The notes beneath the pieces were generated by a model. The model was not told the DNA's origin, made no database searches, and saw only the letters and a list, made by a program, of their open reading frames with translations. The translations under genes and the position numbers were made by a program. Of a DNA stretch of 38,843 nucleotides, positions 2,151 through 38,843 are shown piece by piece. This stretch comes from Candidatus Methylomirabilales bacterium (lineage in GTDB: Bacteria > Methylomirabilota > Methylomirabilia > Methylomirabilales > CSP1-5), in contig JBHIAH010000018.1 in NCBI GenBank assembly GCA_046758505.1, positions 1-38,843 of the forward strand, read 5' to 3'. Each line of letters begins with the position of its first letter. Position 1 is the first letter of the stretch.

Positions 2151-2151
2151 G

Positions 2152-9055: not shown

Positions 9056-9058
9056 CTG

Positions 9059-12540: not shown

Positions 12541-12612
12541 CCGTTCAGGGTTTACAGAAATTCGAATTTCGAAATTCGAAATTACAAAGACTCGCGGTCA
12601 CCGGTCGTCGGT
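12541..12612. repeat. Left arm of heptamer inverted repeat flanking garR
   Basis: GTTCAGGGTTTACAGAAATTCGAATTTCGAAATTCGAAATTACAAAGACT..; approximately the reverse complement of 13534-13590. Confidence 0.7.
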
Positions 12613-12636
12613 CGTCGGTAACCGGAGGGGACTACG

Positions 12637-13533
12637 ATGGCGAAGAAAATCGGTTTTATCGGACTCGGGATCATGGGGAAGCCTATGGCCCGGAATCTCC
12701 TGAAGGCTGGCCATGCCCTCACCGTGTACAGCCGCTCCCGGCCGCCCATGGACGAACTGAAACGGGATGGCGCCGCCCTCGGATCGTCCCCCAAGGAGGT
12801 GGCTGCGGCCTCTGAGGTGCTGATCACGATGCTGCCGAACTCTCCGGATGTCGAGGCGGTCGTTCTCGGGGTCAATGGCATCCTCGAGGGGGCCAAATCG
12901 GGCATGATCCTGATCGATATGAGCACCATTTCTCCCCTCGTCTCTCAGAAGATTTACCAGGAAGCCAAGAAAAAGGGGGTGAAGGCCCTCGATGCGCCGG
13001 TCAGCGGCGGGGAGAAGGGGGCCATCGAGGGGATCCTCTCCATCATGGTCGGCGGGGATCAAGAGGTCTTCGAAGCGATGGTCCCCACCTTTCAGGCCAT
13101 GGGGAAGACGATCACGTACATGGGATCCGCGGGGGCAGGGGGCTTCACGAAGCTGGCCAATCAGGTGATCGTGGCCATCAACCTCACCGCGATCGGTGAG
13201 GCCTTGACGCTCGCGGCAAAGGCCGACCTCGACCCCGAACGTCTCATCAAGGCGTTAAGTGGCGGCATGGCGGGGAGCCGGTGCCTGGACATGAAGGGCC
13301 CCCAGATCATCAAGGGGAATTTCCAGCCGGGGTTCAAGGTCGATCTCCACTATAAGGACCTCGGCCTCATCATGGAAGCAGCCCGGGCCCTCCAGGTTCC
13401 GCTGCCGGCCACGGCCCTTGTCCAAGAGCTCTTCTCGGCGCTCCGCGTCAAAGGTCGGGGGAGCCTGGATCACTCGGCCGTCATCACCGTGCTGGAAGAG
13501 CTCGCCGGGGCGCAAGCCCGCACCAAGAGCTGA
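12637..13533 (+). CDS. garR: 2-hydroxy-3-oxopropionate (tartronate semialdehyde) reductase
   Basis: KIGFIGLGIMGKPMA, DAPVSGGEKGA, TKLANQ and PGFKVDLHYKDL motifs. Confidence 0.88.
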   Translation: MAKKIGFIGLGIMGKPMARNLLKAGHALTVYSRSRPPMDELKRDGAALGSSPKEVAAASEVLITMLPNSPDVEAVVLGVNGILEGAKSGMILIDMSTISPLVSQKIYQEAKKKGVKALDAPVSGGEKGAIEGILSIMVGGDQEVFEAMVPTFQAMGKTITYMGSAGAGGFTKLANQVIVAINLTAIGEALTLAAKADLDPERLIKALSGGMAGSRCLDMKGPQIIKGNFQPGFKVDLHYKDLGLIMEAARALQVPLPATALVQELFSALRVKGRGSLDHSAVITVLEELAGAQARTKS

Positions 13534-13590
13534 GCGACGACCACAAGTATTTGCAATTTCGAATTTCGAATTTCTGTGAACCGTGAACAC
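13534..13590. repeat. Right arm of heptamer inverted repeat flanking garR
   Basis: AGTATTTGCAATTTCGAATTTCGAATTTCTGTGAACCGTGAAC. Confidence 0.7.
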
Positions 13591-21723: not shown

Positions 21724-22790
21724 TCAACCTCCTCCTCCTCGCGGGATTCGGCGTCTCTGCCTGGGATTTCCTTGTGTTGGAACAAGAACGTCTCGGTCAA
21801 AAGAGACGTAGGTTACCCGGAGGTACTCGTTACTGAGACCTCTGGCAACGTGTCCCAACGCTCTTCTCATATCATTCGGATGCTTTTCGAGAATGGCGCC
21901 TACGTCCGATAATGCGTAAGAGATCCGCGTTTTCATATACGTATCAAAACCAAACCGTCCGGCCTCTCCTTCCATGCCATCACTCTCCAATCGGTCTTTC
22001 CCTTCTTCAGTCAAGGAATACTCGACGATTCCATATGGTGTCACAACTCTGTTCCGTATCTTTCCTCCCCCGTGATGATATTCGTCGAATTCCCGAGAAA
22101 TATCCATCATAAATGCGATATCAATCGGACTTGGCATTGAATATCTTACATTAGAAATTAATGCCTTCTCGAAGCCTCCCCGCATATTCGTTGGACCAGT
22201 CGGCCGCTTGCAGATCACATCATCTGTACATTGTTCAAAGTAGACCAACGGATGATAGTGATAGAGATGTAATCTGTGATGGTCACGCATAAGTTGCGCC
22301 AGATATTCTCTATCGACATCAACGCTGACGTCTTCAGCGCGGTCACCATATTCACCCCTTCCGATTTCAATCCACTGACACTGACCCGGATTCCCGTCAT
22401 CAGGTATATACACCAACATTACCTCAAAGTGAGAGCGCCGCATGAGGGCAATTATTCTCTGGAGTCCTGCTGATTCGCATGCGTTTTCAGGTATTGCTCT
22501 ACCAGCGTCTGCAAAAGTGACACCCGACTTGCCGGGACCGCTCATTGGCGACCCTGATTGCCCTTGCTGGGCATACGGACGACGTCTACCATCATTACTA
22601 ACAATGTCAGGACACCCGCTCAAAGCCACACCGGCAACGAGTAAAACGCTTGCGAACGCCAGTCGTCCTCTCTGGGGTCGATTTTCCAACGCACACACGC
22701 GCTGAGTCTCTCGCCCTGCGATCTCGCGTCTCACACTCAAGAATGATACGACGATGGCGACACCCCGCGGGGTCACCTTGAATCGGGCCA
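21724..22790 (-). CDS. Hypothetical lipoprotein, lower GC, JAB/MPN-like residues
   Basis: Long ORF in a low-GC stretch; lipobox ALSGC; HFE..HYHP..PSPID; start uncertain. Confidence 0.6.
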
Positions 22791-22923
22791 TGTGTACCCT
22801 TCGCTGCATGCCTTGTGTCAAGTCCAATCTGCGCACGAGCACTCCAGTCTCAGGAGGAACTTGCGGAGGTGCGTGAGCAGGTTAAGACCAAGCAGCAGGA
22901 CGGAGAAAGGGGTGGCAATCCGT

Positions 22924-24251: not shown

Positions 24252-24282
24252 CGCCGACACCCCTGTCACGTCTAATTCCTCA

Positions 24283-24370
24283 CAAACACAGCGCCCACCC
24301 GGGTCCCGTTTCACCCGAGAGGGCGCCGCAAGGGCTGTGCCGGAGGGGGGGCTATCGTCAGGGCGGGTTT
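24283..24370 (-). ncRNA. Repeated leader module, degenerate partial copy A
   Basis: Minus strand TGAcgATAGCCCCCCCTCCGG.. then hairpin GCGCCCTCTCGGG..CCCGGGTGGGCGC, similar to the 3' part of copy G. Confidence 0.45.
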
Positions 24371-24414
24371 ACTGCCACTCGCTATAAGCCAAGTGTTACT
24401 GGGTATGTGCCCAC

Positions 24415-25122
24415 TCATTCATTGCTGCGGCGACTTCTTTCGATCACCACCCACCAGAGGAACCAGCCGGCAACTGCGGCAACAAGCAGCCAGAGCCAGG
24501 CACGCGTCTCGCCGGACCAGATGCCGTCACCCATCAACACCATCATGATCGTGAGCGGCAGGATGCCTAACCCGGTGGTCCAGGTGAACGTCCACCAGGA
24601 AATCGTGGTGAGTCCCGCCGCGTAGTTGATCAGGTTGAACGAGATTACCGGCAGCAGGCGGCTGAAGAGCAGCGCCCCGCCGCCCTGCCTCACCGCCCAG
24701 TGGTCGACGGTCGCCCGATGCCGCTCCGCCACCATCCCCAGTACGAACGGCCTGCCCAGCCACCGCGCAAGGCCGAAGGCGACATAGGCACCGAGCATGG
24801 CGCCGGTCCAGGTAATCACACTCCCCCAAAGCGGACCGTACACCATGCCGTTGGCCATGGCGAGAAATTCCGCCGGGAACGGGATGAAGCTGTGCACGAT
24901 CATCAGAAGGATCGATCCGGCGGCTCCCCAGGCACCCCACGCGTGGATCCGCCTCTCGGCGGCCTCCGATGACATCTCGAATCCTGGCAGGGCAGGAACC
25001 ATGTCCCACAGTGCAAAGACCCATACGACACCCGTAACCAGGACGAGGGCGACGAGCGCCAGCACCGCAAGGTTTATGCGGCGGAACCGCGTCGATGTCA
25101 CTCGAGGAGGCTCGACACCCAT
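24415..25122 (-). CDS. TVP38/TMEM64 (DedA/VTT) membrane protein
   Basis: PFPAEFLAMANG..YG, GA..AF.LAR.LG and RLLPVISFNLINYAAG motifs. Confidence 0.9.
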   Translation of the reverse strand: MGVEPPRVTSTRFRRINLAVLALVALVLVTGVVWVFALWDMVPALPGFEMSSEAAERRIHAWGAWGAAGSILLMIVHSFIPFPAEFLAMANGMVYGPLWGSVITWTGAMLGAYVAFGLARWLGRPFVLGMVAERHRATVDHWAVRQGGGALLFSRLLPVISFNLINYAAGLTTISWWTFTWTTGLGILPLTIMMVLMGDGIWSGETRAWLWLLVAAVAGWFLWWVVIERSRRSNE

Positions 25123-25172
25123 CGACAACCCGTATGATTTGACATTACATGGCCGAATCTGAACGCTGCCCC

Positions 25173-25419
25173 AAGAAAAACGCCTTCCCGGCCGACGCTG
25201 CGCCGGGAAGGGCGTCCGATTGTCCGGTCCGCCGTTGATTGCGCCTCAGATGGGCCGGGAGCTACGGTCACCCCGGTTTTATTAATAGTACCTGCTGGGG
25301 CCTAAGGGTTGAGAGTTGAATGTTCTCTTTACCGGCCAACCACGGGATAACACGAAGGGTTGGCTGAAGGCGGGTCTTTTCTACCTCAAAAGGCATGCTC
25401 CCTGTCAAGCCCAAACTGC
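25173..25419 (-). ncRNA. Repeated leader module copy B
   Basis: GCAGTTTGGGCTTGACA-N19-TAGAAAAGAC; ATA AAA CCG GGG TGA (25268-25282); GGCG-N15-CGCC; GC hairpin followed by a T-tract. Confidence 0.7.
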
Positions 25420-25520
25420 GGGAGCACCCGGGTCATCTCTTTCTTCAACATTCTTCAATGCTTCCCATTGGCGCATATCACGATTCAAGACCGTAACCCC
25501 GCCTTTTTCCATCCGCCCAG

Positions 25521-26306
25521 TTACCACGACAGGGTGAGCATTAACGCGACGTGGCGGCCATCCGAATACGGAAGAATGGTGATCCTGCCCGGGTCTTCCT
25601 TTTTGTGGATTCTGGCGACTCCCCTTCCGATGACCGTCCCAAGGGCTGCGCCAAAGACGACATCGGATAAGAAGTGTTTGTCATCGGAGAGCCGTGAGAA
25701 TCCCACGAATCCCGCAAACAGATAAAGCGGAATTCCGATCTCATGGCCGTACATGGCATCCACCGTGGCGGCCAGGGCAAAGCTGCCCGAGGCGTGGCCG
25801 GAGGGAAACGACGACGTAATGCGGTCGCCGCTTCCGTCCGGTCTTTCCCTCCCCGTCGACACCTTGAGGAGGCTGGTCAGCGCCTGCGTGATGATCTGGG
25901 ACTCGATCAGCGCCTTGCCGGTTTCGATCACTTTGTCCTCCTCGGCGACCCGCCCCAGGATATAGGTGGAGAGGGCGATCCCACCCAGGGTCAGTCCATG
26001 CCCGCCGATGTTGCCGATCCCCGCAAAATCTCCGATGGAATCGTCGGCCCCCTCCCGGACCTCATCGTCGGCATCGGTCTGCGACAGGCCCATGGCGGCT
26101 CCACCGCCGACGCCCAGGATCGCGAGATTCCACCCCGTGAAGCTTTCCTGGGTTCCCTGCAGCACGTTCCTGGGAAGCTCGTGCAGGAGGTACTTCGGAA
26201 AACTCTCCTCCCGTGCCTGAACCGTCTTCTCCGGCTCTGCGTGGGCAGGGAATCCAGGCAAGAGCAGGAAGAGAGTCGCGAACACGATCCATGGCTTTCT
26301 CACCAT
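25521..26306 (-). CDS. PAP2-family phosphatase
   Basis: K....RERP, SFPSGH and SRL...KH..SDV motifs; signal peptide. Confidence 0.9.
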   Translation of the reverse strand: MVRKPWIVFATLFLLLPGFPAHAEPEKTVQAREESFPKYLLHELPRNVLQGTQESFTGWNLAILGVGGGAAMGLSQTDADDEVREGADDSIGDFAGIGNIGGHGLTLGGIALSTYILGRVAEEDKVIETGKALIESQIITQALTSLLKVSTGRERPDGSGDRITSSFPSGHASGSFALAATVDAMYGHEIGIPLYLFAGFVGFSRLSDDKHFLSDVVFGAALGTVIGRGVARIHKKEDPGRITILPYSDGRHVALMLTLSW

Positions 26307-26337
26307 TGCAAAGACCCTATCCACAGCGTGACTCGGG

Positions 26338-26585
26338 AAACCGAAACGCCCTCGAGGGCCATACTGCACCCGGGAGGGCGTGCGAATTTGCACTGCGCCG
26401 TCGGTGGTGCCGCGGTTAGGCGTGGGGCTATATTCACCCCGGGTTCATTGTGCGACCCGTTGACAGATGAGTGTTGAGAGCCAAGAGCTCCGCCTCTGTC
26501 CGTTACCCCCGCGACAGCCCGAAGGGTCCCCTGGGGCTGGGTCTTTTCTACCCCGAGAGGCTCACCCCTTTCAAGCTCAAACTGC
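26338..26585 (-). ncRNA. Repeated leader module copy C
   Basis: GCAGTTTGAGCTTGAAA-N18-TAGAAAAGAC; ATG AAC CCG GGG TGA (26434-26448); GGCG-N15-CGCC; ACGCCCTC/GAGGGCGT hairpin. Confidence 0.7.
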
Positions 26586-26681
26586 CCTTGCGTCGATCGG
26601 CGCAGCATCGGGGACCCCGGCCTGTCGAAAAAGGAGCGTGTCCTTTTCCCCCGCGGACGGCCGGGAGCCGGGAAGGAAAGA

Positions 26682-27746
26682 TCACGGAGAGAACCGGTAC
26701 GAAGCGGAGAGGAAGAAGCCGAAGTCGGCCCCGGCATCGGCCAAGGTGATGAGGTTCTCCATGATTCCCCACTGGAGGCCGAAGGCGGGGGTCAAGGCCC
26801 AGCTCAGGCCGAAGGCGGACCAATCGCTCCATTCGTCGAAAAAGTCGAGGCCGGTATTGCGAAACGGGGCGCTATTGGCGCCGATCTGTCCCACGAACGC
26901 GAGCCGGGTGGTGATGCGGTACTCCGCCCCGAGTAGTCCCGAATAGATCGGGCGCACGGTCAGGCGGCTGCCGGCGAACCGGTCCCCAAGGGGAAACGTC
27001 GCGTTAAGATTGCCGTACAGCGTCCAGCGTGTGAGGGTCTTCTCGAACGCGAGGCCGACCCCGATGTCCGGATGGCCGCTCCCCAGCGCGGCGTCGGCAT
27101 CGCCCGTCGGGACCTTGAGCGCCAGCCGCACGGCCACCGCGGGAGTCGAGCCGGTCTCGCGGAACGGGGGCGGGGCCCACTTCACCTGAAGTGCCAGGTC
27201 CCCCACCCCGACGCGGCCCTGGTCGCCCTGCAGGACGGTCTCACCGTTCCGGGAGACACGATAGGTAAACTCATTGCGCGTATTCTCCCGGTCCTCCCGA
27301 TCCCGGATGCTTCGTTCGTACATGATGAGTTCTTCAAACCGGTCGATGAAGCCGTCCATGAAACCCCCGTGCGTGGCGATGATCGGCAGGTCCATCCCCG
27401 CTTCCCAATCCTCCCCGAGTCCGATGCGCGCCTGAAGATTCGCGTGGGTCATCTCCAGGTCGAGACGCCCGCTGAGGCCATCCTGGCCCGTGTCGGCCGT
27501 GAGGGAATTGGTTTCGGCGACGTCCACGCGCAGGCGGATCTGTTTGTGGCCCAGGGGGACCGCCCGCTCCGGCACAAACTGAAAGAAGAGGAGCTGGATG
27601 GGCGATTGGTGGCGAATCGCCAGGGGGCCGTGGATCAGCACCTTTTCCGTTTTCGTCTGTGCCGCCGCCCCGCCCGCGCCGAGAAAGATCCACGCCGCGA
27701 GGCCGGTCCCGACCGCCGCGCGGGCGCATGTCCTTCCCCACGGCAC
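26682..27746 (-). CDS. DUF3187-like outer-membrane beta-barrel protein
   Basis: GPLAIRHQSPIQLLF, GGFMD.FI and LKVPTGD..LGSG motifs; C-terminal ..SYRF; start uncertain. Confidence 0.7.
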   Translation of the reverse strand: MPWGRTCARAAVGTGLAAWIFLGAGGAAAQTKTEKVLIHGPLAIRHQSPIQLLFFQFVPERAVPLGHKQIRLRVDVAETNSLTADTGQDGLSGRLDLEMTHANLQARIGLGEDWEAGMDLPIIATHGGFMDGFIDRFEELIMYERSIRDREDRENTRNEFTYRVSRNGETVLQGDQGRVGVGDLALQVKWAPPPFRETGSTPAVAVRLALKVPTGDADAALGSGHPDIGVGLAFEKTLTRWTLYGNLNATFPLGDRFAGSRLTVRPIYSGLLGAEYRITTRLAFVGQIGANSAPFRNTGLDFFDEWSDWSAFGLSWALTPAFGLQWGIMENLITLADAGADFGFFLSASYRFSP

Positions 27747-28291
27747 GATGACCGCGCCTTTGGTCACCTGCGACCGGCCAGACGCCCGTCCTCGCGAATG
27801 TCCGGTCCGAACACCGGCACTTTCCCCGCCCGACCAGAAAATGTGAGATCCTCCCGACTCCCGCGTGGTATCGGCCAGGCGGGACCGCTCGGTTGACCGG
27901 CTCAAGATGGATGCGGCCTCGCCAGACATTACTACTTGGGAACAACGAAAAGCAACTTCGATGCCAAGCCATCCCGGGACGCGGCGCATCACGCCCCGAA
28001 TATAAAAGCCCTCCCGGACTCAATCGTCCGACAGGGCCCCTGGAACTTTCGTCCACCGTCGATGGTGCCGGAGATGCGCCGGGGACTTCATTCATCCCGG
28101 TTCCATCAATACTTACCCCGAGCCACATTTACGGGCCACGCGCCGTTTTTGATGCACCCCCTGTCGATCCCAATCTGCGCCCATATTCATGGAGGGTAGA
28201 GAGAAAAGCAATGATGTGTTATAGCAAGACATGAACCCCAAACAGTCATGGGGGGGCGACCCGGCCACGATCTTTTGACACGGGTGAGGAC

Positions 28292-29059
28292 ATGACGATG
28301 GCGATGGAGACGGGTACCCTGCACCTGACGACAGCTGGGTATCGCGGGCAGCCGGTCCGGTACGAGGTCCCATTCATGGCCTTCCCGACGGTGTCCGCCA
28401 GGCTCATCATCCAGGCGCCCGGGACGGGGGAACCGATGGAAGGCGGCGGGAACCGGTTCGTGCGACTCGCCGAATACCTGCAGAGCCGGAGCCTCGCGAC
28501 GTTCGTGACCTTTACCCCGCCCACGCCGGATGGCCAATTCGACCACCCGGACGAGCCGTACTCGTACCGAGGGGCGAGCTGGAACCGGATCTTCGTCGAG
28601 GGGATGGCCTCTCTGGTGGAGCACTGCCTGACCAACGCGGAGGCGCTGTGCGGCGTGAAGGAGCCCGAGGTGTGCCTGGCCGGCTTCTCCTCCGGGGGAT
28701 CGGTGGTCGTAACCGTGGCCCCCTTCTTTGCGGCGGTGAAGAAGATCCTGCTGGTCTCCACATACGACAGCGTGGGTGTGGGATCCATGGGGTGGTACTA
28801 CCTGAACGGCCTCAGGCGGTACACCGGGGAGGTGTACGTAGCCTATGGGGAGGAGGACGGCCCGGCCGCCATGTTCGCCATGACCCTGCCTGCCCTGGCC
28901 CGGAGCGCCAGCGCGGTCCACGCGCGGGGGGTCCCCCACTGCGGGCACAGCTTTGGCGGAGAGGCGAACGGCAAAATTTTCAGCAAGGCGTACCTGTGGG
29001 CCTTCGCCGGGGACGACAGCTTTCCCTCACCGGATGGTGGCGTCCCCCTGTACGAGTGA
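28292..29059 (+). CDS. Alpha/beta hydrolase-fold protein
   Basis: GFSSGG nucleophile elbow; YGEED and GHSF as candidate Asp/His. Confidence 0.75.
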   Translation: MTMAMETGTLHLTTAGYRGQPVRYEVPFMAFPTVSARLIIQAPGTGEPMEGGGNRFVRLAEYLQSRSLATFVTFTPPTPDGQFDHPDEPYSYRGASWNRIFVEGMASLVEHCLTNAEALCGVKEPEVCLAGFSSGGSVVVTVAPFFAAVKKILLVSTYDSVGVGSMGWYYLNGLRRYTGEVYVAYGEEDGPAAMFAMTLPALARSASAVHARGVPHCGHSFGGEANGKIFSKAYLWAFAGDDSFPSPDGGVPLYE

Positions 29060-29104
29060 GTTGAGCGTTGAGGGTTGAGGGTGAGGAACGAAGCGGAAAT
29101 GGGG

Positions 29105-29833
29105 TCAGACGCCATTGTCAGTACTAGTGCGTTCCCAGAGGCGCCAGGCTACCCAAAGATTGGTCAGCACGAATAGCGGAACGCCAATCATTGGCGCAAT
29201 CGACATCGGATAGGTAAAAACCACTCGGGCGTCGGGTAAACTCGTGAATACTTGGACTGGACCTGGTAAACCGAGCTGCAACAGGATGGGTGCAGAAGGT
29301 ACGATAATTAATGCTCCGATCAGATTCCAAAGCATGAAACTTTTTGTACTGATCGCGCCACGCCTCGTTTTGCTGGCGATCCAAAATGCAGAGACTCCAA
29401 ACAGAAAGTCGGGAACGCCAACAAGAAGTTCGAAATAAACCGGGAACTCGCCGATGATTGTCTTGTAGGTAGTGCCAAGAGCCAAAATGCGCAGTCCGTG
29501 GAAATAACCAAACCAGTGCCATGGCGTCGTATCGACAATGTATCGCATGCCGTTGCGCACTTCAGCAAATAAGACAATCGGCAGCACACAGACTGCCACT
29601 GTAATCAGTTGAAGCCAAAACCCCGGTAGGAATTTGAGTAATTCTTCGGAAACGTAAACGCCGCGTGCCCCAAGAATGCCTGTGACGACGGCGTAGGCCG
29701 TGACCCATAGCACATAGATATAGACCGGCCCCATATTTCTTTCTGACGGAGCAGCGTGGGCGGAACGCCGCGCCAATACGAACACAAAGCCCAATTGGAC
29801 AGCCAGTAAGAATGGTGTCAACGATAGTTGCAC
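29105..29833 (-). CDS. Hypothetical polytopic membrane protein (low GC)
   Basis: 242-aa hydrophobic ORF; WNLIG and YPMSIAP; GC visibly lower than flanks. Confidence 0.75.
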   Translation of the reverse strand: MQLSLTPFLLAVQLGFVFVLARRSAHAAPSERNMGPVYIYVLWVTAYAVVTGILGARGVYVSEELLKFLPGFWLQLITVAVCVLPIVLFAEVRNGMRYIVDTTPWHWFGYFHGLRILALGTTYKTIIGEFPVYFELLVGVPDFLFGVSAFWIASKTRRGAISTKSFMLWNLIGALIIVPSAPILLQLGLPGPVQVFTSLPDARVVFTYPMSIAPMIGVPLFVLTNLWVAWRLWERTSTDNGV

Positions 29834-29949
29834 GCTGCACCTGCCTTCTAGGGTTGTTGCCCTTTGCGCCTAACTTTGGATTATCTTGTTCAGCATAAGA
29901 CCCGAAGCCTTCCGCGGGCTCATCCCACCCTAAGTCCCCTCTTTCCTGT

Positions 29950-30056
29950 AAAGCAAAATGCCTTCGCGGGCCATACTTCGGCTGCGAAGGCGTCGGAATT
30001 GTCTGACCCGCCGTCAATGGTGCCCACGGTGTGTCGGGGGCGATGCTCACGCCCAT
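29950..30056 (-). ncRNA. Repeated leader module, partial copy D (3' half only)
   Basis: GGGCGTGAGCATCGCCC, GGCG-N16-CGCC, and the GCCTTCGC/GCGAAGGC hairpin with T-tract; begins right after the methyltransferase stop. Confidence 0.6.
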
Positions 30057-30058
30057 CC

Positions 30059-30922
30059 CTAATTTCCCCAATTTCCTTCCTTTTCCTTCTCACTGAACCG
30101 TGTGGGACGCACGGCTAAGTACGCGTAGTAGTTACACGCCGCGAAAAATGTCCCTTCCTTGATTGCTCGGTGCTGGTCTGTGAGCCACCTCTCTACCTGC
30201 TCCTCCGGCAACAGGCCGATACGGGACACCAATGGCGCATAGGTTTCGGCAAAGCTCTTGAAATAACTTCCAGTGCCGATCTCCGCATGGGCATGGGGAA
30301 GAGTGCCGGCGAGCTCGAGCCCCACCTCTCGAAGGAGGCGGGGGAGATTCGACATCACACGGGGATTCGTAAACACGGCGGTTTTCAGAGCTTCGTCCAT
30401 GGCTTTGCCAAGCTCGGGGTCAGCGCACGCGAAGGTCAATGACCCGTAGTCACCGTCAAAAATGATGACTATCCCTCCTCTACGGACAACCCGGGCGGAC
30501 TCCCTTAACACAGCGAGGGGGTCCGTGACATGACTGATCAACGTGTGGGCGATCACGATATCAAAGCTTTCAGCCGCGTACTCCAGGGCATGTGCGTCCC
30601 CGACCTGGAACTCCATCCGATCACCGAGGCCTTCCTCTGCCGCAAGCCGGCGTGCTGTCTCAATGAGCAAAGGATTCTGATCGACACCCGTCGATCGCCC
30701 CGCAAAACCCGCACGGCGGGCCACCGCTCGCGCCACAACGCCTGTACCACAGCCAAGATCGAGCACGTGCACCGCGGGCGTGAGTGGTAGCTTATCCAAG
30801 TAGGCATCTCGCAGCTGCGCAAACGCAGGATCCTTCCCCCGCGTCTCCATGCGCGTGATCAAATTCTGGATTGTGGTCTCATCAGCCTCATTGATAAAGC
30901 GATGGACGTCTCGTATGGCCAT
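30059..30922 (-). CDS. Class I SAM-dependent methyltransferase (UbiE-like)
   Basis: VLDLGCGTG, GDAHAL..ESFDIV and RVVRRGG motifs. Confidence 0.9.
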   Translation of the reverse strand: MAIRDVHRFINEADETTIQNLITRMETRGKDPAFAQLRDAYLDKLPLTPAVHVLDLGCGTGVVARAVARRAGFAGRSTGVDQNPLLIETARRLAAEEGLGDRMEFQVGDAHALEYAAESFDIVIAHTLISHVTDPLAVLRESARVVRRGGIVIIFDGDYGSLTFACADPELGKAMDEALKTAVFTNPRVMSNLPRLLREVGLELAGTLPHAHAEIGTGSYFKSFAETYAPLVSRIGLLPEEQVERWLTDQHRAIKEGTFFAACNYYAYLAVRPTRFSEKEKEGNWGN

Positions 30923-30935
30923 GCCCTATCCCCCA

Positions 30936-31172
30936 CAAAAAGAAAACGCCTTCGCGGGCCGAGCGGCCCCCGCGAAGGCGTCGGAGTCATCTGAACCGCC
31001 AGTGTGTCCGCCGGAGGTGGGCCACGGAGGTATACTCACCCCGGTTCCATCTAACCATTACCTCAGGGAGCTTGCCGCTCCCCTAATCTATCGATCGCGC
31101 ACGCGACACCCTGAAGGCTCGCCCAAGGGTGCTCTTTTCTACCCCGACCGGTCTCCCCCCTGTCAAGCCCAA
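30936..31172 (-). ncRNA. Repeated leader module copy E
   Basis: TTGACA-N19-TAGAAA; GAGGT-N9-ATG GAA CCG GGG TGA (31036-31050); 13-bp terminator stem followed by TTTCTTTTT. Confidence 0.8.
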
Positions 31173-31184
31173 GCTGCGGCCATC

Positions 31185-32519
31185 TTAAGCTTGGCCTCCG
31201 GGGGAGACCTTAGGTCTACTAGCCAGCCGCTGGAATAAGCGGACGCGTTCCCCTGCACCAAGATCATCGCGCCAACGCAAGAGCTCAATCTTCGGCCCGG
31301 CGCGGTCAATTAGGACATAAACGAACTCGCTCTCTTCCTTAAGAAGCCTTTCCTCGACATTCTCCGCAAAGACCTTAGTCCACGTCCCCGAATTGACGTA
31401 CTCGGCCCCCGGTGGGCCATTGGACAAGGGTTGGAGATCGGCCTCGTGAGTATGGCCGAAGACCACGTATCGGACATCAAGTAGCGCGCTGATACGATTG
31501 GCAAAGGAGGTCAAGGGATCATCGCCTCCTGCTGCACCAAGGAAGGCAAGAAACAGACGCCACTTGGGGGCGTGATGGATCGCGGATTGCACCCAGAGAG
31601 CCTGGAGCTCGCTGAGTCTATCTACAGGTAATCCCGTTTGACCAGAGAGGGCACGCAGCCGCTCAGCCTGTTCTTGTTCCAACTGTTCTCGCCACTCGGG
31701 TTTGATGGGACCAGCTTTCTTTAGTGTCTCATTGAAAAACCGGAGATATTTTGGGATATTCCGCCATCCTTCAATTCGCTTCAGGGCCCAGCAGATGAAT
31801 GCCGTCGATGGCTTCATATTGTCAGCGAACGGAAAGGATAATTCCACCTTGTTAAAGAGATAACGCACGAAGAAGGAGCCAGCTGGCAGGTCAATTCTTC
31901 CGTCCGAAAGATAAGGATGTAGGAAGTGATCAAATGAGTTCAAGCGGTCGTACTGGTGGCCATGATCGACATAAATGAGGTTCGGTTCCAGGTAGAACCA
32001 TGGTAAGAACCGGATTCGCTCGGCAACCCCTTTCTCCGCCCCAGCTGGCGCACGGGTAGCCATCTCAGATACGAAGGTCGCCTGAACCTCGGGGATGACC
32101 CACTCGATGTCGTGATTGCCTGGTAAGATCACGAGATCGTGGCCTCCACTCAGAAAACGGGCGAGGGCGTCAAAAAAAACCCGGTGACCGCTCATAATCC
32201 GCTTCAGTTTCCAGCAGGTGTGGGCAGAACTCGTCCCCAGGCCAAATTGACGATGCCGCGGCTCGATCGGCTCGCCGTCCAGGCGGTCGCCGGAGGGGAC
32301 AGTCGTGACCTGAAGGAAATCAACGAGATCTCCCGGAATGAGCAGCCGCAGCCGGTACCCTCCCTGGGCTGCGATCTCCACCTGCTTCGAGAGGAAGCGG
32401 AAAAACGCGGTGTCAAAGAAGAAATCCTCATTGCGCGACAAGTGTTTCGTCTCCTCATCCCATCCCTCGCTGAGATGAAAGTCGCTCACAATGATAAGAA
32501 AGCGGTGGTCATCCATCAT
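31185..32519 (-). CDS. Calcineurin-like metallophosphoesterase
   Basis: SDFH, GDLVD, GNHD, HGHQYD, FGHTH and YVNSGTW motifs. Confidence 0.88.
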   Translation of the reverse strand: MMDDHRFLIIVSDFHLSEGWDEETKHLSRNEDFFFDTAFFRFLSKQVEIAAQGGYRLRLLIPGDLVDFLQVTTVPSGDRLDGEPIEPRHRQFGLGTSSAHTCWKLKRIMSGHRVFFDALARFLSGGHDLVILPGNHDIEWVIPEVQATFVSEMATRAPAGAEKGVAERIRFLPWFYLEPNLIYVDHGHQYDRLNSFDHFLHPYLSDGRIDLPAGSFFVRYLFNKVELSFPFADNMKPSTAFICWALKRIEGWRNIPKYLRFFNETLKKAGPIKPEWREQLEQEQAERLRALSGQTGLPVDRLSELQALWVQSAIHHAPKWRLFLAFLGAAGGDDPLTSFANRISALLDVRYVVFGHTHEADLQPLSNGPPGAEYVNSGTWTKVFAENVEERLLKEESEFVYVLIDRAGPKIELLRWRDDLGAGERVRLFQRLASRPKVSPGGQA

Positions 32520-32535
32520 AGATTGCCTTTCCGCT

Positions 32536-32772
32536 CAAAAAGAAAACGCCTTCGCGGGCCGAGCGGCCCCCGCGAAGGCGTCGGAGTCATCTGAACCGCC
32601 AGTGTGTCCGCCGGAGGTGGGCCACGGAGGTATACTCACCCCGGTTCCATCTAACCATTACCTCAGGGAGCTTGCCGCTCCCCTAATCTATCGATCGCGC
32701 ACGCGACACCCTGAAGGCTCGCCCAAGGGTGCTCTTTTCTACCCCGACCGGTCTCCCCCCTGCCAAGCCCAA
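32536..32772 (-). ncRNA. Repeated leader module copy F
   Basis: 236/237 identical to 30936-31172; the only difference turns TTGACA into TTGGCA. Confidence 0.8.
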
Positions 32773-32853
32773 TCTACGGTTCTCGCAAGGGAGCAATCCG
32801 AGACGCCGCTTTACGGAATGCCAACACTCAAGACCCGATCCTCTCTCCGCTCA

Positions 32854-33594
32854 CTACCCGACCAGGCTGCGTAGCACGAGGCTGACTCCCGCCACCGAGA
32901 GGATCACGAGTACCGCCCGCCGGAAGGTTGCCTCGGGCAGGCGCATCTGGATGCGGCGACCACACCAATACCCCGCCAGGGCAACCACCACCAACGGGAG
33001 CGACAGCGCCGCGAGCCTGCCCGTCCACAGCGCAAAGTGGTACGTGGCCGCGACCTGCGTCAGCTTGAAGGCGAGGAATACGGCGCCGAGCGACTGGACG
33101 AAGGCGGCCTTGTCCAGCCCCAGTGTGTAAAAGAAGATCGCCACCGGACTGAAGACGTTCGTCACCCCGCCCATCACCCCCGTCGCTGCCCCGGCTGCTG
33201 TTACCCACAGCAGGCGGTTCGATCGGGGCAGCGTGGGCTTCCACGGCGTGAGCTGGGACAGCGCGAACGCCAGGATCATCAGTCCGAGAGCGAGGCGAAG
33301 CGTTGGCCCGGGTAAGGTGGCCAGGAGCTTGGTCCCCACGAGGATCCCGGCCACCCCCGGCAGGATCAGCGGGAGGACCCGGCGGACATCCTCCTGTTCC
33401 CAGGGCCGGCTGAAAGACTGGTAGAGGTCCATGCAGATGTTGGGGATGAGCGTGAGGACGACGGCCGTCGGGACATCGACCAGCAGGGCGATGAGCGGGG
33501 TGGCAACGAGCGGAAAGCCCATCCCGAAGGTCCCCTTATTGAGTCCGGCAATGAAGATCGCCCCCGCGCATCCCCAGAAAAAAGGGTCCCCCAT
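32854..33594 (-). CDS. Sulfite exporter TauE/SafE (TSUP) family protein
   Basis: AG..KG..GMGFPL..TP, about 8 TMs, G..GG repeat in the second half. Confidence 0.85.
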   Translation of the reverse strand: MGDPFFWGCAGAIFIAGLNKGTFGMGFPLVATPLIALLVDVPTAVVLTLIPNICMDLYQSFSRPWEQEDVRRVLPLILPGVAGILVGTKLLATLPGPTLRLALGLMILAFALSQLTPWKPTLPRSNRLLWVTAAGAATGVMGGVTNVFSPVAIFFYTLGLDKAAFVQSLGAVFLAFKLTQVAATYHFALWTGRLAALSLPLVVVALAGYWCGRRIQMRLPEATFRRAVLVILSVAGVSLVLRSLVG

Positions 33595-34033
33595 CCCCCC
33601 GATCTCCTCCCTCCGATCGTCGTCACCCGTCCGGGCGGCATTGATCCCCCCCCTCGGGACGGCTCAGTATCCCCAGGGCGGCCAGGGGTGTCAAGCAGGG
33701 GGACCGCCCCGTCTTCTCACTCACGGGCTGTGTGTCCGGGGAGGGGTCCTTGTTCAATGCAACAGGGAGGAGTGCGGCGCGATCCTGATCGCAGAGAGAA
33801 TCCGCACACGATCCCGTACAGAGAGCGGCTCATGCCGTCATGCCGTGAGAAATCCCGGCTGAGAGTTGAGAGTCAAGTGCCTAGACCCAAATGCCACAGG
33901 GCAGGCGTTCCGTATTCCCTCTATGCCTCGATAGCTCTCTCCCCTCTCAGGCCCAAAGCCCGGTTGCGTTCAGCAAACGCAACGGGCGGGGACGCCCGAT
34001 GGGCGACTGCAAGCCATGATCCGCGCTTCTCCC

Positions 34034-34531
34034 TCACGGACCGATGCGCTTTCGTCCCGCGGCACGGCGCGCATCGGCGACCTGTCCCCGGTGCATCATC
34101 CAGTGGAGCGCCGTCATCAGGAAACACTGGCGGACCGTCCCGAAGTTCGCCTGCCGCTGTGCGGGAGCCTTGCTCGTCTTGTCGAGGTCGGCCTCGCTGA
34201 ACGAATCGAGGAGCTTCAGCGTTCCCTCCCGCACTGCGTGGCTTTTCGCCATCACCTCATCGAAGGGGGGATATGTGGCGGGGTCGGCAACCGGTTCCGT
34301 CCCGGCGCCGAAGATCGCGTTCCACTCGGCGAGCGGATTCGGTTCCCCCACGATCCATTCGCGGACGAACCTGGCTTCGGAAAGCGTTGCGTTTCCCAGC
34401 ACCCACAGCGGGTGGCATCCGCCGTTTGGCGTCGGAAAGGTCACGGGCGCATCCTTCATATCCTCAATGAGCGGAAGTACGATGCCCCTGGTCATTTCCA
34501 GGGTCATTCTGAGCAGCTCTTTGGATTGCAT
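34034..34531 (-). CDS. DinB-family protein
   Basis: HPLWVLG, YPPFDE and HWMMHRGQ motifs; AGGAG before the ATG at 34531. Confidence 0.8.
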   Translation of the reverse strand: MQSKELLRMTLEMTRGIVLPLIEDMKDAPVTFPTPNGGCHPLWVLGNATLSEARFVREWIVGEPNPLAEWNAIFGAGTEPVADPATYPPFDEVMAKSHAVREGTLKLLDSFSEADLDKTSKAPAQRQANFGTVRQCFLMTALHWMMHRGQVADARRAAGRKRIGP

Positions 34532-34747
34532 CGGTAGACTCCTTTCAATTCGGGCCCTCCTCGTCTCGATGCGCGGCACACCCCCCGATCAACGACTCTA
34601 TTGTAAAGGCAGCACCCCGCCCGCGTCTACCCTGTATGACAAACCAGAATGCCCTCCCGGGCCATCCTATGCCCGAGAGGGCCTCTGGGACGATGGTGCC
34701 GCAGGTGGGCCAGGAGACTTTACTCACCGCGGCTCTATCCTTCGGGT

Positions 34748-34774
34748 AATGTCAAGATTCAAGACCTGACCCTC
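34748..34774 (+). repeat. 27-bp direct repeat, copy 1 (REP / Y1-transposase-end-like)
   Basis: AATGTCAAGATTCAAGACCTGACCCTC, identical at 38752-38778. Confidence 0.75.
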
Positions 34775-34838
34775 AGCCTGACCCTGACCCTCAGCCTGAC
34801 CCTCAGCCTCTCAGCCTCTGCTCAGCCTCTCAGCCTGC
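34772..34838 (+). repeat. Short tandem repeat (CTCAGC / CTGACC / CTCAGCCT units)
   Basis: Visible low-complexity run abutting the putA fragment. Confidence 0.7.
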
Positions 34839-34840
34839 TC

Positions 34841-35092
34841 GGAGGCCTCTACTCCCGAAGCCCCGCCCACATCCAGCGGGCCAAGGAAGCCTTTCGGGTG
34901 GGGAACCTCTACATCAACCGAAAGATCACCGCAGCCCTGGTCGGTCGCCAGCCCTTTGGGGGTTTTAGGATGTCGGGGATCGGCTCGAAGGTTGGCGGTC
35001 CCGACTATCTCCTTCAGTTCATGGAGCCCCGGACTATCACGGAAAATAACCTTCGCCGGGGCTTCGCGCCTCCACGGTCAGATGTCTCATGA
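34841..35092 (+). pseudogene. putA: C-terminal fragment of PutA/PruA (P5C dehydrogenase)
   Basis: GGLYSRSP..FRVGNLYINRKIT.A.V.RQPFGGF.MSG.GSK.GGPDYLLQF..RRGFAP; no start codon or N-terminal domains. Confidence 0.85.
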
Positions 35093-35100
35093 TCCCAAAT

Positions 35101-35946
35101 CTACTGACTCATCCGGAGGACGAGGCACTTCGCCGCCCCTCCCGCCTTGAGGAACTCGGAAAGGTGGCGCTCGTAGAGCTCAAACCCCCGCCGCGCAAGC
35201 TCTTTGCGCAGTGGCTTTGACACTCCGCCGTGTAGGATCACCGCGCGATCGATCACAATGGCGTTGCAGCAAAACCTGAGCGCATCGGCCGTGGAAACGG
35301 GCACCGGATCCTGGACATGCGTCTTGATAACCTTCCAGCCGTAGCGGTCAAACGCCCCGGGATACCAGAGGGCCGACGTGGCATCAAGCGGACAGAAGCA
35401 GGTATCGAGATGATAAAAGCGCTTGTCGACCAGCTCGAGCGGCAGGACCCGACGATCCAGGGTCTTTGCGAGGTGCTCATGGGCTCCGGCGTCAGAGCGG
35501 AACCGAAAGCCAAGGAACAACGTTTCGCCCACCCATAACGCATCGCCTTCGCCTTCGAAGTTGAACTGTCGGGGCATCGTTACTACCCGATAGCCCTGTC
35601 GCCGGAAGTACCGCTCGAAGATCGCCTCTTCTCCGCGGCGCTCGGGATGCCGGAAGTTCGTGCGAATAAATGTGCCTCCCGCCAGGAGGCCTGCATTCGC
35701 CGTAAAGACCAGATCTGGTAAGCCCTTGACCGGCCGGACGAGCCGGACTGGCAGCCGGAGCGTCCGGGTCAACAGGTCATACAGGGCTTGCCACTGTCGC
35801 GCGGCCACTGGCTGAGACACCTGTCTGGTGATGCTCATCCAGGGGTTGATTTCGTACGCGATGGTGTAGTAACTGGGGCGGGACATCAGAAACGCCAGTG
35901 ATGAAAGGGACTTGGCACCTCTAGCGTCGGGCCAGTTTGAGGTCAT
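35101..35946 (-). CDS. Amidinotransferase-superfamily enzyme, arginine dihydrolase-like (ArgZ/AgrE N-domain)
   Basis: YEINPWM, PDLVFTANAG, FEGEGD, FYHLDTCF and EFLKAGGAAKC motifs; start uncertain. Confidence 0.85.
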   Translation of the reverse strand: MTSNWPDARGAKSLSSLAFLMSRPSYYTIAYEINPWMSITRQVSQPVAARQWQALYDLLTRTLRLPVRLVRPVKGLPDLVFTANAGLLAGGTFIRTNFRHPERRGEEAIFERYFRRQGYRVVTMPRQFNFEGEGDALWVGETLFLGFRFRSDAGAHEHLAKTLDRRVLPLELVDKRFYHLDTCFCPLDATSALWYPGAFDRYGWKVIKTHVQDPVPVSTADALRFCCNAIVIDRAVILHGGVSKPLRKELARRGFELYERHLSEFLKAGGAAKCLVLRMSQ

Positions 35947-37144
35947 GGCAGAGCTCCCGCAGGAAAGAGGCCGCATCGGAGACGATGCCAATCCCCTGGA
36001 AGGTCCCCCGATCGGCGAGCTTCGTCACGACTGCCGGATTGATGTCCACGCAGATGGTCTTAACCGTGGCGCGAAGGAGGTTCCCCGTAGCAATCGCATG
36101 GAGGGTCGAGCCGATCATAAGGGCCAGGCCCACCTCTTTCAGGTTGCGGCGCATCTCGTCCTGGGCTCTCAGCACGTCGGTGATCACGTCCGGTAGGGGG
36201 CCATCGTCTCTGATGGACCCGGCCAACACAAACGGAACGCGGTGCGTGACGCACGCGTGCATGATGCCCCTGGCCAGAAGGCCTTTGCGCACCGCCTGAC
36301 GGATCCCGCCGCAGGCGCGAATCGTGTTGATGGCGCGCATGTGATGGTCATGCGCGTCCCTGGCCGGGACCCCCCGATCGAGCGAGACGCCAAGCGAGGT
36401 GCCAAACAGCGCCGACTCGATGTCATGGACGGCGAGCCCATTTCCGCCAAACAGGACATCAACATATTTGGCCTCGATCAGCCGCTCCAAGTCCGGTCCG
36501 CCTCCGGTATGGACGATGGCTGGGCCTCCGACGACGAGGATCTTTCCCCCCGCGTGCTTGGTGGCCCGCATCGCCCTTGCCACGCCATCGATGAGTAGGG
36601 CCTTCGGCTTCTCTGAGGAAACAGCGCTTCCCATGAACTGGAAGACATCCTTATGCCGCGATCGCTCGAGCGGGGTGACTTGGACTCCGGCTGTGCCGCA
36701 GACCACAAGATCCCCTTTCTTGACGTGGGACAGGGGCACGCAGGAGGCGCGAGCGGTCCGGGGATCGATCACAATACCGGAGTCCATCTCGATATTCTCC
36801 ACCGGCCGCCAGCTTCCCTGATACCGCACAGAGGTGGGCAGATTCGTTGTTGAGTAGAACTTTGATGGGAAGACCCCGTCTTGGCGTGCGCGGACTAGAT
36901 GGACGTCGCGCAGGGCCAGCGGTGTGGCTCCCAACCTGGCCAGGCGTTTCAGCATCGCCTGGAGCTTGTGCTGGGAACTTGCACTGACTTTCAGCTGGGC
37001 TGTCGAGCTATCCGTTTTGCGTTTGCCGATGGCAATCTCGAGGATCTCGAATGTTCCCTCGAGATCAATAATCTCATCAAGAATCTTTGGGAGGGTCAGT
37101 GAATCGAGAATATGCCCACTGACCTGGACTGTTTCAGAGACCAT
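35921..37144 (-). CDS. TIGR00300-like ornithine cyclodeaminase (ArgZ/AgrE C-domain type)
   Basis: GHILDSL, FYSTTN, EMD, FMGSAVSSEKP, GN.LAVHDIE, LAGSIRDDGPLPD and DRG motifs. Confidence 0.88.
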   Translation of the reverse strand: MVSETVQVSGHILDSLTLPKILDEIIDLEGTFEILEIAIGKRKTDSSTAQLKVSASSQHKLQAMLKRLARLGATPLALRDVHLVRARQDGVFPSKFYSTTNLPTSVRYQGSWRPVENIEMDSGIVIDPRTARASCVPLSHVKKGDLVVCGTAGVQVTPLERSRHKDVFQFMGSAVSSEKPKALLIDGVARAMRATKHAGGKILVVGGPAIVHTGGGPDLERLIEAKYVDVLFGGNGLAVHDIESALFGTSLGVSLDRGVPARDAHDHHMRAINTIRACGGIRQAVRKGLLARGIMHACVTHRVPFVLAGSIRDDGPLPDVITDVLRAQDEMRRNLKEVGLALMIGSTLHAIATGNLLRATVKTICVDINPAVVTKLADRGTFQGIGIVSDAASFLRELCHDLKLARR

Positions 37145-37274
37145 CTTCCGTCGCAGCATAGTTTGTGCGCTCTGGCCCGGGAGGTGCATTCACCGGTTGA
37201 GGGTCTACGGTACCTATCCACCGCGGAATTGCGGTTCGAAATGAGCCCACGGATCTCCCCGCACTCCTTGCTCG

Positions 37275-37358
37275 CTAGTATAGCACCTCCACCCCCGCCT
37301 CGAGGCTATTTGCCAGTCGGGCAGCGAGGCGGTATCCGACCCCCGCCACCCGGCTCAT
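37275..37358 (-). CDS. Candidate 27-aa ORF with strong RBS (small protein or gene stub)
   Basis: AGGAGGAGG-gga-ATG; MSRVAGVGYRLAARLANSLEAGVEVLY-TAG; directly downstream of leader copy G. Confidence 0.35.
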   Translation of the reverse strand: MSRVAGVGYRLAARLANSLEAGVEVLY

Positions 37359-37400
37359 TCCCCTCCTCCTACCTTTGAGGCGATGGGCGGTCGCCCGTCT

Positions 37401-37602
37401 CAAAATGTAAAACGCCCTCCCGGGCTTTAATTCGCCCGAGAGGCCGTCTGAATGCTTGGTGCGCCAACGATTGTCCCGGAGGGGGGCCGGGAGCTATGAT
37501 CACCCCGGATTCATTAATAGTACCTGTTGAGAGTTGAGTGCTTGTTCCGGAATCAGCCACGCGACACGCCTAAGGGCCGCCAACCGTCCTCAAAAACTAC
37601 CC
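37401..37602 (-). ncRNA. Repeated leader module copy G
   Basis: CCCTTAGGCGTGTCGCGTG; CAGGTACTATTA ATG AAT CCG GGG TGA (37500-37514); hairpin with T-tract; promoter block diverged. Confidence 0.65.
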
Positions 37603-38638: not shown

Positions 38639-38843
38639 CGCGTTGGCCTTCCGTACGCACAAGGGGTCGGGAGTCTTTTTATCGGCTTCAACCCCTGCAA
38701 AGCCCAATGTGCGGCTGTCTCAACCGACCGATCTGACGTAGCAGGTTCGGGAATGTCAAGATTCAAGACCTGACCCTCGATCCTCTCTCGCGCGACGCCG
38801 CGATCCAGCAGGGCCGCTGTCATCTCGATGGCGTGGCTCGGCA
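38635..38843 (-). CDS. Possible 3' end of a CDS entering from the right edge
   Basis: Open frame from the window edge to a TGA overlapping the HEAT gene ATG (ATGA); no recognisable motif. Confidence 0.3.
   Translation of the reverse strand, partial: PSHAIEMTAALLDRGVARERIEGQVLNLDIPEPATSDRSVETAAHWALQGLKPIKRLPTPCAYGRPTR
38752..38778 (+). repeat. 27-bp direct repeat, copy 2
   Basis: Identical to 34748-34774. Confidence 0.75.

Follow-up and report, generated by a model that had tools for sequence, protein, structure and literature searches.

A multi-copy leader with a four-codon reading frame and an open -1 frame ahead of unrelated genes in Methylomirabilales: a possible frameshift-gated terminator

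Contig JBHIAH010000018.1 (contig C18; 38,843 nucleotides (nt), analysed over its whole length and here called the window) belongs to the 2.99-Mb, 149-contig genome (63% G+C) of a Candidatus Methylomirabilales bacterium. Its minus strand carries repeated copies of a module in which a promoter-like site, a leader with a four-codon upstream open reading frame (uORF) and an intrinsic terminator precede unrelated genes. Positions inside the module are counted from the A of the uORF start as 1, and two sequence groups are distinguished, the own family in genus g1 and a second family in family f7/g8. A sequence-only reading had described five near-full and two partial copies on the minus strand, all of which were recovered where it had placed them, the remnant at 24283-24370 with a weak profile score (E 0.05). 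The window holds ten copies or remnants, three more than first described, the additional ones being two copies (27999-28179 and 34641-34743) and one half that consists of the promoter only (22753-22834).

From high to low coordinates, and throughout on the minus strand, the array begins with a copy that has a diverged promoter (37402..37587; uORF MNPG-stop 37500-37514, terminator 37402-37447) and a -1 frame open to position 144. The shortened copy at 34641..34743, with an ATA start, CCG CGG TGA at 34724-34738 and its terminator at 34641-34684, lies 5' of a DinB-like gene (34034-34531). Two copies with the long promoter form, type A, follow at 32536..32779 (TTGGCA 32761-32766, uORF MEPG-stop 32636-32650, terminator 32537-32581) and 30936..31179 (TTGACA 31161-31166, uORF MEPG-stop 31036-31050, terminator 30937-30981). 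The next gene starts 17 nt after the former and 14 nt after the latter; a metallophosphoesterase gene (31185..32519) is enclosed between them, and beyond the second lies a SAM methyltransferase gene (30059..30922) for which 65 other genomes of the order gave no match at E<=1e-50. The partial copy at 29950..30067, 5' of a membrane protein gene (29105-29833), is devoid of a promoter and has an ATG (30056) directly in the -1 frame, which is open through the terminator; from this arrangement it is predicted to be a locked-on variant. The newly found copy at 27999..28179 (uORF MEPG-stop 28092-28106, in which GGA TGA creates an ATGA overlap; terminator 27999-28038) is followed by a DUF3187 gene (26682-27767), and further type A copies stand 5' of a PAP2 gene (25521-26306; copy 26338..26588, uORF MNPG-stop 26434-26448, terminator 26338-26381) and of a VTT/DedA gene (24415-25128; copy 25173..25420, TTGACA 25403-25408, ATA-start uORF 25268-25282, terminator 25173-25215). 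A decayed remnant (24281..24370), 5' of a lipoprotein-like ORF ending at 23862, has retained the terminator and lost the uORF, and the type A promoter half at 22753..22834 has no leader core. The earlier calls of VTT/DedA, PAP2, methyltransferase and metallophosphoesterase genes held, whereas the supposed ornithine cyclodeaminase is an ArgZ-like/LOR-SDH protein.

Within the window the cores are 50-69% identical, apart from the pair at 31050 and 32650, whose cores are identical and which share 98% identity over a stretch of 249 nt that starts immediately ahead of the -35 box and ends with the U-tract. Read-derived contigs from four runs of one study break at this pair, as expected of a true repeat; the contig joints listed for those runs have short sides and are uninformative on excision. 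Between the terminator and the VTT start (25101-25141) run X4 carries five substitutions, with none in the leader among the rows listed.

Genome-wide, an iterated nucleotide profile gave 47 matches at E<=1e-4 and none in the reversed genome, and the exact 15-mer ATGNNNCCGGGGTRR occurs 24 times in the source genome and 78 times in genome G006 (backwards control 0-2). With a covariance model, matches were obtained in 27 of 66 genomes of the order Methylomirabilales: 12 of the 13 other genomes of the genus match, with up to at least 50 scored copies each, as do 9 of 20 genomes in f7 and none of 21 in f5. In a sample of the phylum 23 of 151 genomes match, every one of them in the same order. The repeat was not found in viral contigs (0 matches), plasmids or phages. 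Five pattern matches lay outside the phylum; three are chance and two (L165 and L190, 91-103 bits) are real and come from one Candidatus Binatia bin, which may reflect transfer between phyla or mis-binning. A comparison with Rfam, proposed by the sequence-only reading as a possible refutation, returned no family; the single match in the window is a chance one (E 0.62) outside the copies, and 20 homologue loci gave tRNAs only. No description of the motif was found in the open-access literature, a scope that leaves aside subscription journals and the supplements of motif-discovery papers. The accessible text of PMC11109978 classes multi-copy motifs as selfish, accepts uORF candidates only if the downstream gene is constant, and contains no mention of the NC10 lineage.

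The core of the module has a fixed order: a Shine-Dalgarno sequence (SD), start-NNN-CCG-GGG-stop (Met-x-Pro-Gly), about 50-55 nt, a 14-bp hairpin and a broken U-tract. The four-codon uORF and the open -1 frame, both absent from the earlier description, are the features under the strongest constraint. Full copies begin with ATG, GTG or TTG in 175 of 189 cases in the own family and in 64 of 68 in the second, and an SD is present in 111 of 182 own-family copies (control 24) and 57 of 63 second-family copies (control 12). Codon 2 encodes E, K, D or N in the own family and is free in the second. At the stop position the own family has TAG 102 times, TGA 47, TAA 22 and TGG 2, the second family TGA 56 and TGG 4 times. 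On a tree of 178 copies, 39 of 53 changes of the stop codon lead from stop to stop, though A-to-G changes are common elsewhere, and TGG occupies the stop position in 2 of 168 copies where 28 are expected; by comparison, TGG stands there in 40 of 64 chance matches among those listed from family-free genomes. The start and stop of the uORF are thus under purifying selection. Six distant copies (L450, L458, L480, L494, L507 and L525), which the profiles missed and which were chosen by eye from the pattern and from orthologue loci, keep the SD and M-x-P-G-stop around unrelated middles, five of them with a full terminator. In L480 (1373-1620) and L494, a diverged single copy directly follows a tRNA gene and has a response-regulator gene downstream; their hosts are two f7 genomes with no covariance-model match.

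A second layer of constraint concerns the run of G residues before the stop and the frame that it opens. On the tree, G9, the silent third base of CCG, changes once, G10 twice, G11 never and G12 twelve times, mostly to A, which is the pattern predicted by -1 re-pairing of tRNA-Gly; judging from these substitutions, the G run rather than the proline is conserved. After such re-pairing, reading would go on with the codon at 12-14, and in all 211 aligned copies with a stop this codon is GTA, GTG, ATA or ATG. In 130 of 135 own-family and 36 of 40 second-family copies the -1 frame runs to the terminator arm without meeting a stop, compared with 31/135 and 6/40 for frame 0 and 63/135 and 28/40 for frame +1. 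It remains open past the arm in all seven window copies and in all nine diverged copies (six with unrelated middles), of which six each are open in frames 0 and +1. A first shuffle control for open frames was biased by inherited stops and was replaced by tests on new stops only. When the substituted bases were redrawn, 12 stops in the -1 frame were observed against 30.1 expected and 9 against 19.6, with no deficit in the other frames. Tree-aware counts of stop gains, with frames taken from the real sequences up to the arm, likewise gave 5 against 22.5 and 5 against 11.1 in the -1 frame; the same count pooled over the other frames was undepleted (45 against 39.7 and 36 against 29.5). The -1 frame shows no synonymous excess (0.28 vs 0.31 and 0.26), one-base indels before the arm are common, and only 7 of 118 copies have it fused in frame to the gene that follows. 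Selection thus appears to keep the passage of the ribosome and not a peptide.

The GGGG run permits a single-tRNA slip in both families, and the heptamer C CCG GGG is present in 34 of 52 second-family and 17 of 156 own-family copies. As the distance from SD to start is mostly 5-8 nt, the SD lies 10-13 nt before the heptamer. Re-initiation at an overlapping GUGA or AUGA is possible in the TGA copies, 45 of 166 in the own and 44 of 45 in the second family, and AUA occupies positions 18-20 in 121 of 166 and 32 of 45 copies. Pro-Pro occurs in the -1 frame of 102 of 154 own-family and 21 of 43 second-family copies (123 of 197), and the genome encodes elongation factor P (EF-P). The genome also has a tRNA-Sec; selenocysteine or pyrrolysine read-through was rejected in view of the 124 TAG and TAA codons among 171 own-family stops.

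The terminator is the only part of the leader for which base pairing is supported by covariation. As the sequence-only reading had claimed, its stem keeps pairing while changing in sequence (90.5% paired, two-sided changes in 5 of 14 pairs, 0 of 500 shuffles as good); the mean energy is -24.5 kcal/mol (80 sampled copies) and -25.6 kcal/mol (36 sampled copies) in the two families, and at least six T in 10 nt form the U-tract in 70 of 80 copies. The other stems fared differently. CACCCT/AGGGTG exists only in the two 98%-identical copies and hence cannot covary; CAGCCCC/GGGGCTG has no match, a 6-bp CAGCCC/GGGCTG being present instead and again not covarying; and GGCG-N15/16-CGCC does occur in five copies, with no covariation. 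Ten candidate helices, GGCG:CGCC included, pair at the level expected from base composition, and the top covarying columns reflect subfamilies, not pairs. Nor did consensus folding of the 5' regions of 55 type A copies yield a structure.

These data bear directly on a uORF attenuator of the vmlR/cplR kind, in which the uORF would pair with CCACC-U-CCGG and a stalled ribosome would free an antiterminator, either an extended GGCG:CGCC helix or the uORF GGGGU paired with the terminator arm. The architecture of SD, 3-4-codon uORF in a hairpin and terminator is alike (10.1101/2022.12.05.519065, PMC9226507, as far as these sources describe it), and the candidate helices could form in 79-98% of copies. 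Each of them, however, pairs only at column-composition expectation, with duplex energies within those of shuffles. In equilibrium folding of the nascent prefix, 5.7 kcal/mol (shuffles 5.6; 80 copies) and 3.9 kcal/mol (shuffles 5.5; 36 copies) are needed to release the terminator arm in the two families, and a ribosome mask lowers this cost by about 0.5 kcal/mol, i.e. towards less sequestration. Masked equilibrium folding and covariation therefore lend no support to a ribosome-switched antiterminator fold, and the middle is unrelated in the six distant copies; the open -1 frame would also go unexplained. We consider this alternative unlikely. The mutually exclusive antiterminator and terminator hairpins postulated earlier fall with the same evidence: no covariation, an arm opening of about 3-6 kcal/mol in equilibrium folding against about -25 for the terminator, and a middle that distant copies can dispense with.

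The main idea of the sequence-only reading, a ligand-binding riboswitch or a protein-bound antiterminator RNA, has in its favour conserved unpaired motifs at fixed spacing (AUAG at 18-21, GCAC repeats) and the recurrence of PilZ, response-regulator and PAS genes downstream. Multi-copy riboswitch regulons over signalling genes do exist. Nevertheless, there is neither an Rfam match nor a covarying aptamer 5' of the expression platform, and distant copies can do without the middle but not without the uORF, which makes this explanation very improbable. T-box leaders share an invariant UGGNACC bulge together with a specifier stem; the look-alike TGGAACC of the module varies as codon 2 (GAA 110, AAA 33 and GAC 20 of 189 copies; free in the second family), and T-box identity was rejected. 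Motifs of attC, REP, T-box and ANTAR elements were likewise unmatched.

In the 200 nt upstream of the leader, 177 of 238 copies contain TTGAC, as opposed to 19 of 206 in the control. The long type A promoter described earlier does exist; it is nonetheless the minority form: 55 copies have it, whereas 116 have a short type B, TTGACA-17-GATACT followed by a 5' untranslated region of about 25 nt. Nor is its -35 box uniform: exact TTGACA accompanies TAGAAAAGA in only two of four copies, with TTGGCA at 32766 and TTGAAA at 26574. The TAGAAA taken for the -10 box sits at a spacing of 18-19 nt, and the hexamer at 17 nt is G(G/A)TA(C/G)A, which appears to align with GATACT of the short form. As the short promoter is also found without a leader (28 of 38 sites in the source genome), it is probably an ordinary consensus; one such type B site with no leader core precedes a TauE gene at 33666-33694 (-).

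The relation to neighbouring genes, assigned for the 47 matches by our own gene finder, is not random, in agreement with what the sequence-only reading expected of copies elsewhere. The nearest downstream gene is on the same strand for 39 of 47 matches, in some cases only 14-17 nt away; upstream genes are on the same strand in 29, on the opposite strand in 15 and lacking in 3. This orientation argues against a stand-alone small RNA or small-peptide gene of 110-210 nt with its own promoter and terminator, for which the neighbours would be incidental, since some of the genes are too close to leave room for a promoter. Such a gene would fit the promoter-to-terminator unit, the copies that are separated from the next gene by 200-350 nt or are followed by another promoter-like site, and the 30-50-residue peptide with Pro-Pro that the -1 frame could encode. 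The missing synonymous excess in the -1 frame and whole-leader folding z-scores of -0.8 to -1.9 in four of five window copies also speak against such a gene, and we regard this possibility as improbable. The data do uphold the view that the module is uncatalogued and cis-acting, combines promoter, leader and terminator, stands at the head of unrelated and often acquired genes, and travels as one unit: downstream DNA has below 58% G+C in 28% of cases, compared with 6% of genes, and 19 of 22 neighbouring copies form same-strand arrays. The link to a gene is sometimes kept, as VTT/DedA orthologues carry the leader in 3 of 3 cases; among 15 CBS-BON loci there are two weak profile matches and two diverged leaders.

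Near-identical copies with different flanks have common ends, at the U-tract on one side and at GCAG(A/T)TT or a 27-bp palindrome on the other, although some pairs scored as different merely lack flanks. The palindrome, GTGYAGATT-9-AATCTRCAC, occurs in left and right forms, 0-24 times per genome. In relatives it brackets some units of the order site-promoter-leader-gene-site and abuts back to back with 1-3 nt between (L376:5710-6761, L372:4857-6233, L081:153-471, L080, L380), and two sites in the complete genome G036 mark the edges of accessory islands. It may be a recombination site or a transposon end. The whole repeat might accordingly be a non-autonomous mobile element, namely a miniature inverted-repeat transposable element (MITE), a cargo transposon end or a mobile attenuator of the type described in PMC2965389, whose promoter, uORF and terminator would be relics of a transposase leader with no present switching role. 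Copy numbers from 0 to at least 50 within a genus, the same-strand arrays, the sharp ends and the palindromes around whole units are what such an element would leave. On the other hand, no target-site duplication was present in six complete units and no recurring enzyme between sites in 44 integrase, rve and IS110 loci; the full palindrome has no match in the window and three in the source genome. Selection at the codon level, seen among paralogues for the start, the stop and the -1 frame, and the non-random orientation speak against it as well. Mobility explains the spread and not the constraint: it is compatible with a regulatory role and, as the whole explanation, quite unlikely. The arrays seem best explained by recombination between copies, with or without a site-specific system, and a site-specific or transposase system possibly took part in the spread of the unit, bringing acquired genes under one control.

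Several further observations concern recombination and the accessory genes. A pair of tyrosine recombinases (about 370 and 660 aa; L400:3-2866), which we take to be Tn554 TnpA/TnpB-like, stands directly before a palindrome, promoter and leader. Two fragments at L137:1450-1782 and L138:1273-1677 (G000 C23 and C86) are presumably C-terminal parts of integron-type integrases, and one of them adjoins a toxin-antitoxin-like pair. An integron cassette array was rejected: the repeat itself holds promoter, uORF and terminator, and the IntI-like fragments are on other contigs. An IS110 bridge RNA was also rejected, with no Transposase_20 match in the genome and IS110 genes at varying positions near the copies of relatives, as was a dif/pdif site, the single canonical dif-like site (G000 C4:44139, TTATGTAAACT arm) lying elsewhere and being unlike the palindrome. 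Within the window, an ECF sigma / zf-HC2 anti-sigma / DUF3106 cluster is present at 1051-3083 (+) and 35921-37189 (-). A DUF3106-like repeat gene is directly upstream of the ArgZ-like gene in two relatives, which suggests rearrangement around the accessory array. Short low-complexity repeats of 6-7 nt, in inverted or direct pairs, occur at 12543-13588, 9039-9248, 34745-34830 and 38749-38778, one inverted pair bracketing a NAD-binding dehydrogenase gene (12637-13533), and an RNA 3'-terminal phosphate cyclase gene (9814-10845, -) is found among the accessory genes.

For the function of the leader we propose the following. It would be transcribed and translated from the module's own promoter-like site, and most ribosomes would finish translation after the fourth codon, still 50 nt away from the hairpin, leaving the terminator free and transcription stopped. 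A fraction set by the waiting time at the stop codon would enter the -1 frame at the GGGG run, the P-site tRNA-Gly slipping from GGG(10-12) to GGG(9-11) with the stop codon waiting in the A site and the initiating SD 10-13 nt upstream helping the slip. Alternatively, entry could occur by re-initiation at the overlapping GUGA or AUGA, or, as a third possibility, at the conserved AUA at 18-20 with GGGGU as SD. The ribosome in the -1 frame would then trail the polymerase and sterically block the hairpin, as in pyrBI, giving read-through into the gene. The signal would be translational stress, with termination, recycling or formation of the Pro-Gly bond being slow; Pro-Pro in the -1 frame could add an EF-P checkpoint. 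A slip accounts for all three stop types, re-initiation at GUGA/AUGA only for TGA copies; because all three stops are used, a sensor for one release factor is disfavoured.

Several of these steps have precedents in the sources consulted, as far as their available text goes. A ribosome that ends within a few bases of a terminator suppresses it, and an inserted base that moved a stop from 28 to 5 nt before a terminator lowered termination from about 90% to below 10% (PMC4824070). pyrL works by coupling, and poly-proline stalls without EF-P break coupling (PMC5021804). An SD 9-14 nt upstream stimulates -1 shifts, and one insertion sequence (IS) uses a single SD for both initiation and shifting (PMC5009743). 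CCG-GGG is among 16 hyper-slow codon pairs in a Salmonella his-leader screen (PMC4046918), and release-factor defects increase prfB shifting and alter attenuation (PMC5373646). The leader is probably a translated-uORF attenuator of some kind. Whether it is also ribosome-coupled and gated by entry into the -1 frame we regard, from the sequence constraints, as evenly balanced, and true slippage as the main route of entry is put forward with clear reserve. Equally tentative is the complete picture, in which a programmed -1 frameshift gates the terminator of a mobile cassette head present in up to ~80 copies per genome, with one translational-stress control over acquired genes.

A number of results weigh against this proposal. 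Downstream genes have no common function: clustering of the 424 candidate ORFs that follow 287 copies yields 343 clusters, of which the largest comprises 7 copies. The link between leader and gene is often lost (DUF3187 3 of 9, two of them weak; Usp 3 of 16 loci; ArgZ 0 of 4), and a separate promoter-like site lies between the terminator and some of the genes (27951-27966 and about 37280). The former, between the leader copy and the DUF3187 gene on the minus strand, we take to be a sigma-54-like -24/-12 site (TGGCAT-N5-TTGCT). Two of the seven window uORFs begin with ATA. Part of the raw contrast between frames comes from inherited stops at 19 and 26, past which frame 0 is open in 96 and frame +1 in 114 of 135 own-family copies, and in 27 and 32 of 40 second-family copies, respectively. 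Moreover, frames taken from alignment columns 16-56 give 4 stop gains against 10.7 in the own family and 7 against 7.5, i.e. no depletion, in the second, so that the second-family depletion depends on counting frames in real sequences. A CCG GGG, which is no canonical X XXY YYZ heptamer, is found in 114 of 156 own-family copies, and neither a 3' stimulatory stem-loop or pseudoknot nor any covarying structure was found after the shift site. Finally, a terminator can stay efficient despite translation when it lies within the first 100 bp of a coding region (PMC4824070), and since early terminators can resist translation in this way, a pause of RNA polymerase would be required.

Compared with known systems, the module as proposed works like pyrBI with a prfB/ermCL-like recoding gate, in a vmlR/cplR layout and with mobile-attenuator genomics, and is a member of none of these as tested. 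In the E. coli pyrBI leader (pyrL), according to the portions of PMC5021804 and PMC4824070 available, the ribosome likewise follows the polymerase across an intrinsic terminator with no RNA antiterminator. pyrL, however, has a single frame, a gate of polymerase pausing and one locus, whereas the module has a four-codon stop, a need to change frame and dozens of copies; the pyrBI-type open frame reaching the hairpin is found in its -1 frame only. In ermCL (with ketolides) and pheL, as reviewed in the accessible part of PMC5009743, ribosomes that shift frame within a leader ORF are able to continue and unfold the RNA downstream, as proposed here; shifting in ermCL is drug-induced and controls translation initiation, and that in pheL is called incidental, in contrast to a shifted frame that is under selection and faces a transcription terminator. 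The prfB +1 and the dnaX and IS911 -1 shifts yield protein, while the -1 frame of the module is rarely fused (7 of 118) and lacks peptide-level selection, although its SD distance fits the 9-14 nt of the dnaX/IS911 type. From the descriptions consulted, vmlR (MIN), cplR (MRI) and lsaA (MAGN) have the same SD, 3-4-codon uORF and intrinsic terminator in a 5' leader; they differ in using anti-antiterminator/antiterminator folds, for which we find no support here, and in serving one resistance gene family instead of unrelated genes. The IS-derived mobile attenuators (PMC2965389, in part) and cargo MITEs also place related sequences that bear a terminator upstream of unrelated genes, within a handful of related species. 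The mobile attenuators are exapted IS terminators, in contrast to a module with its own promoter and a selected uORF to which no IS is tied.

Known productive frameshifts make proteins, and the leader-ORF cases named in the available text of the review PMC5009743 are the drug-induced ermCL and the incidental pheL only. If the proposal is true, a shifted frame whose only purpose in staying open is to bring a ribosome across a terminator would represent a new way of using recoding, and the leader would be a direct sensor of termination or elongation efficiency. Its 130-nt core could serve as a compact synthetic switch. By copy number the module would head one of the largest RNA-level regulons, one built by copying an RNA switch and not by a transcription factor, and its arrays would offer a slow-growing lineage a route to domesticate foreign genes.

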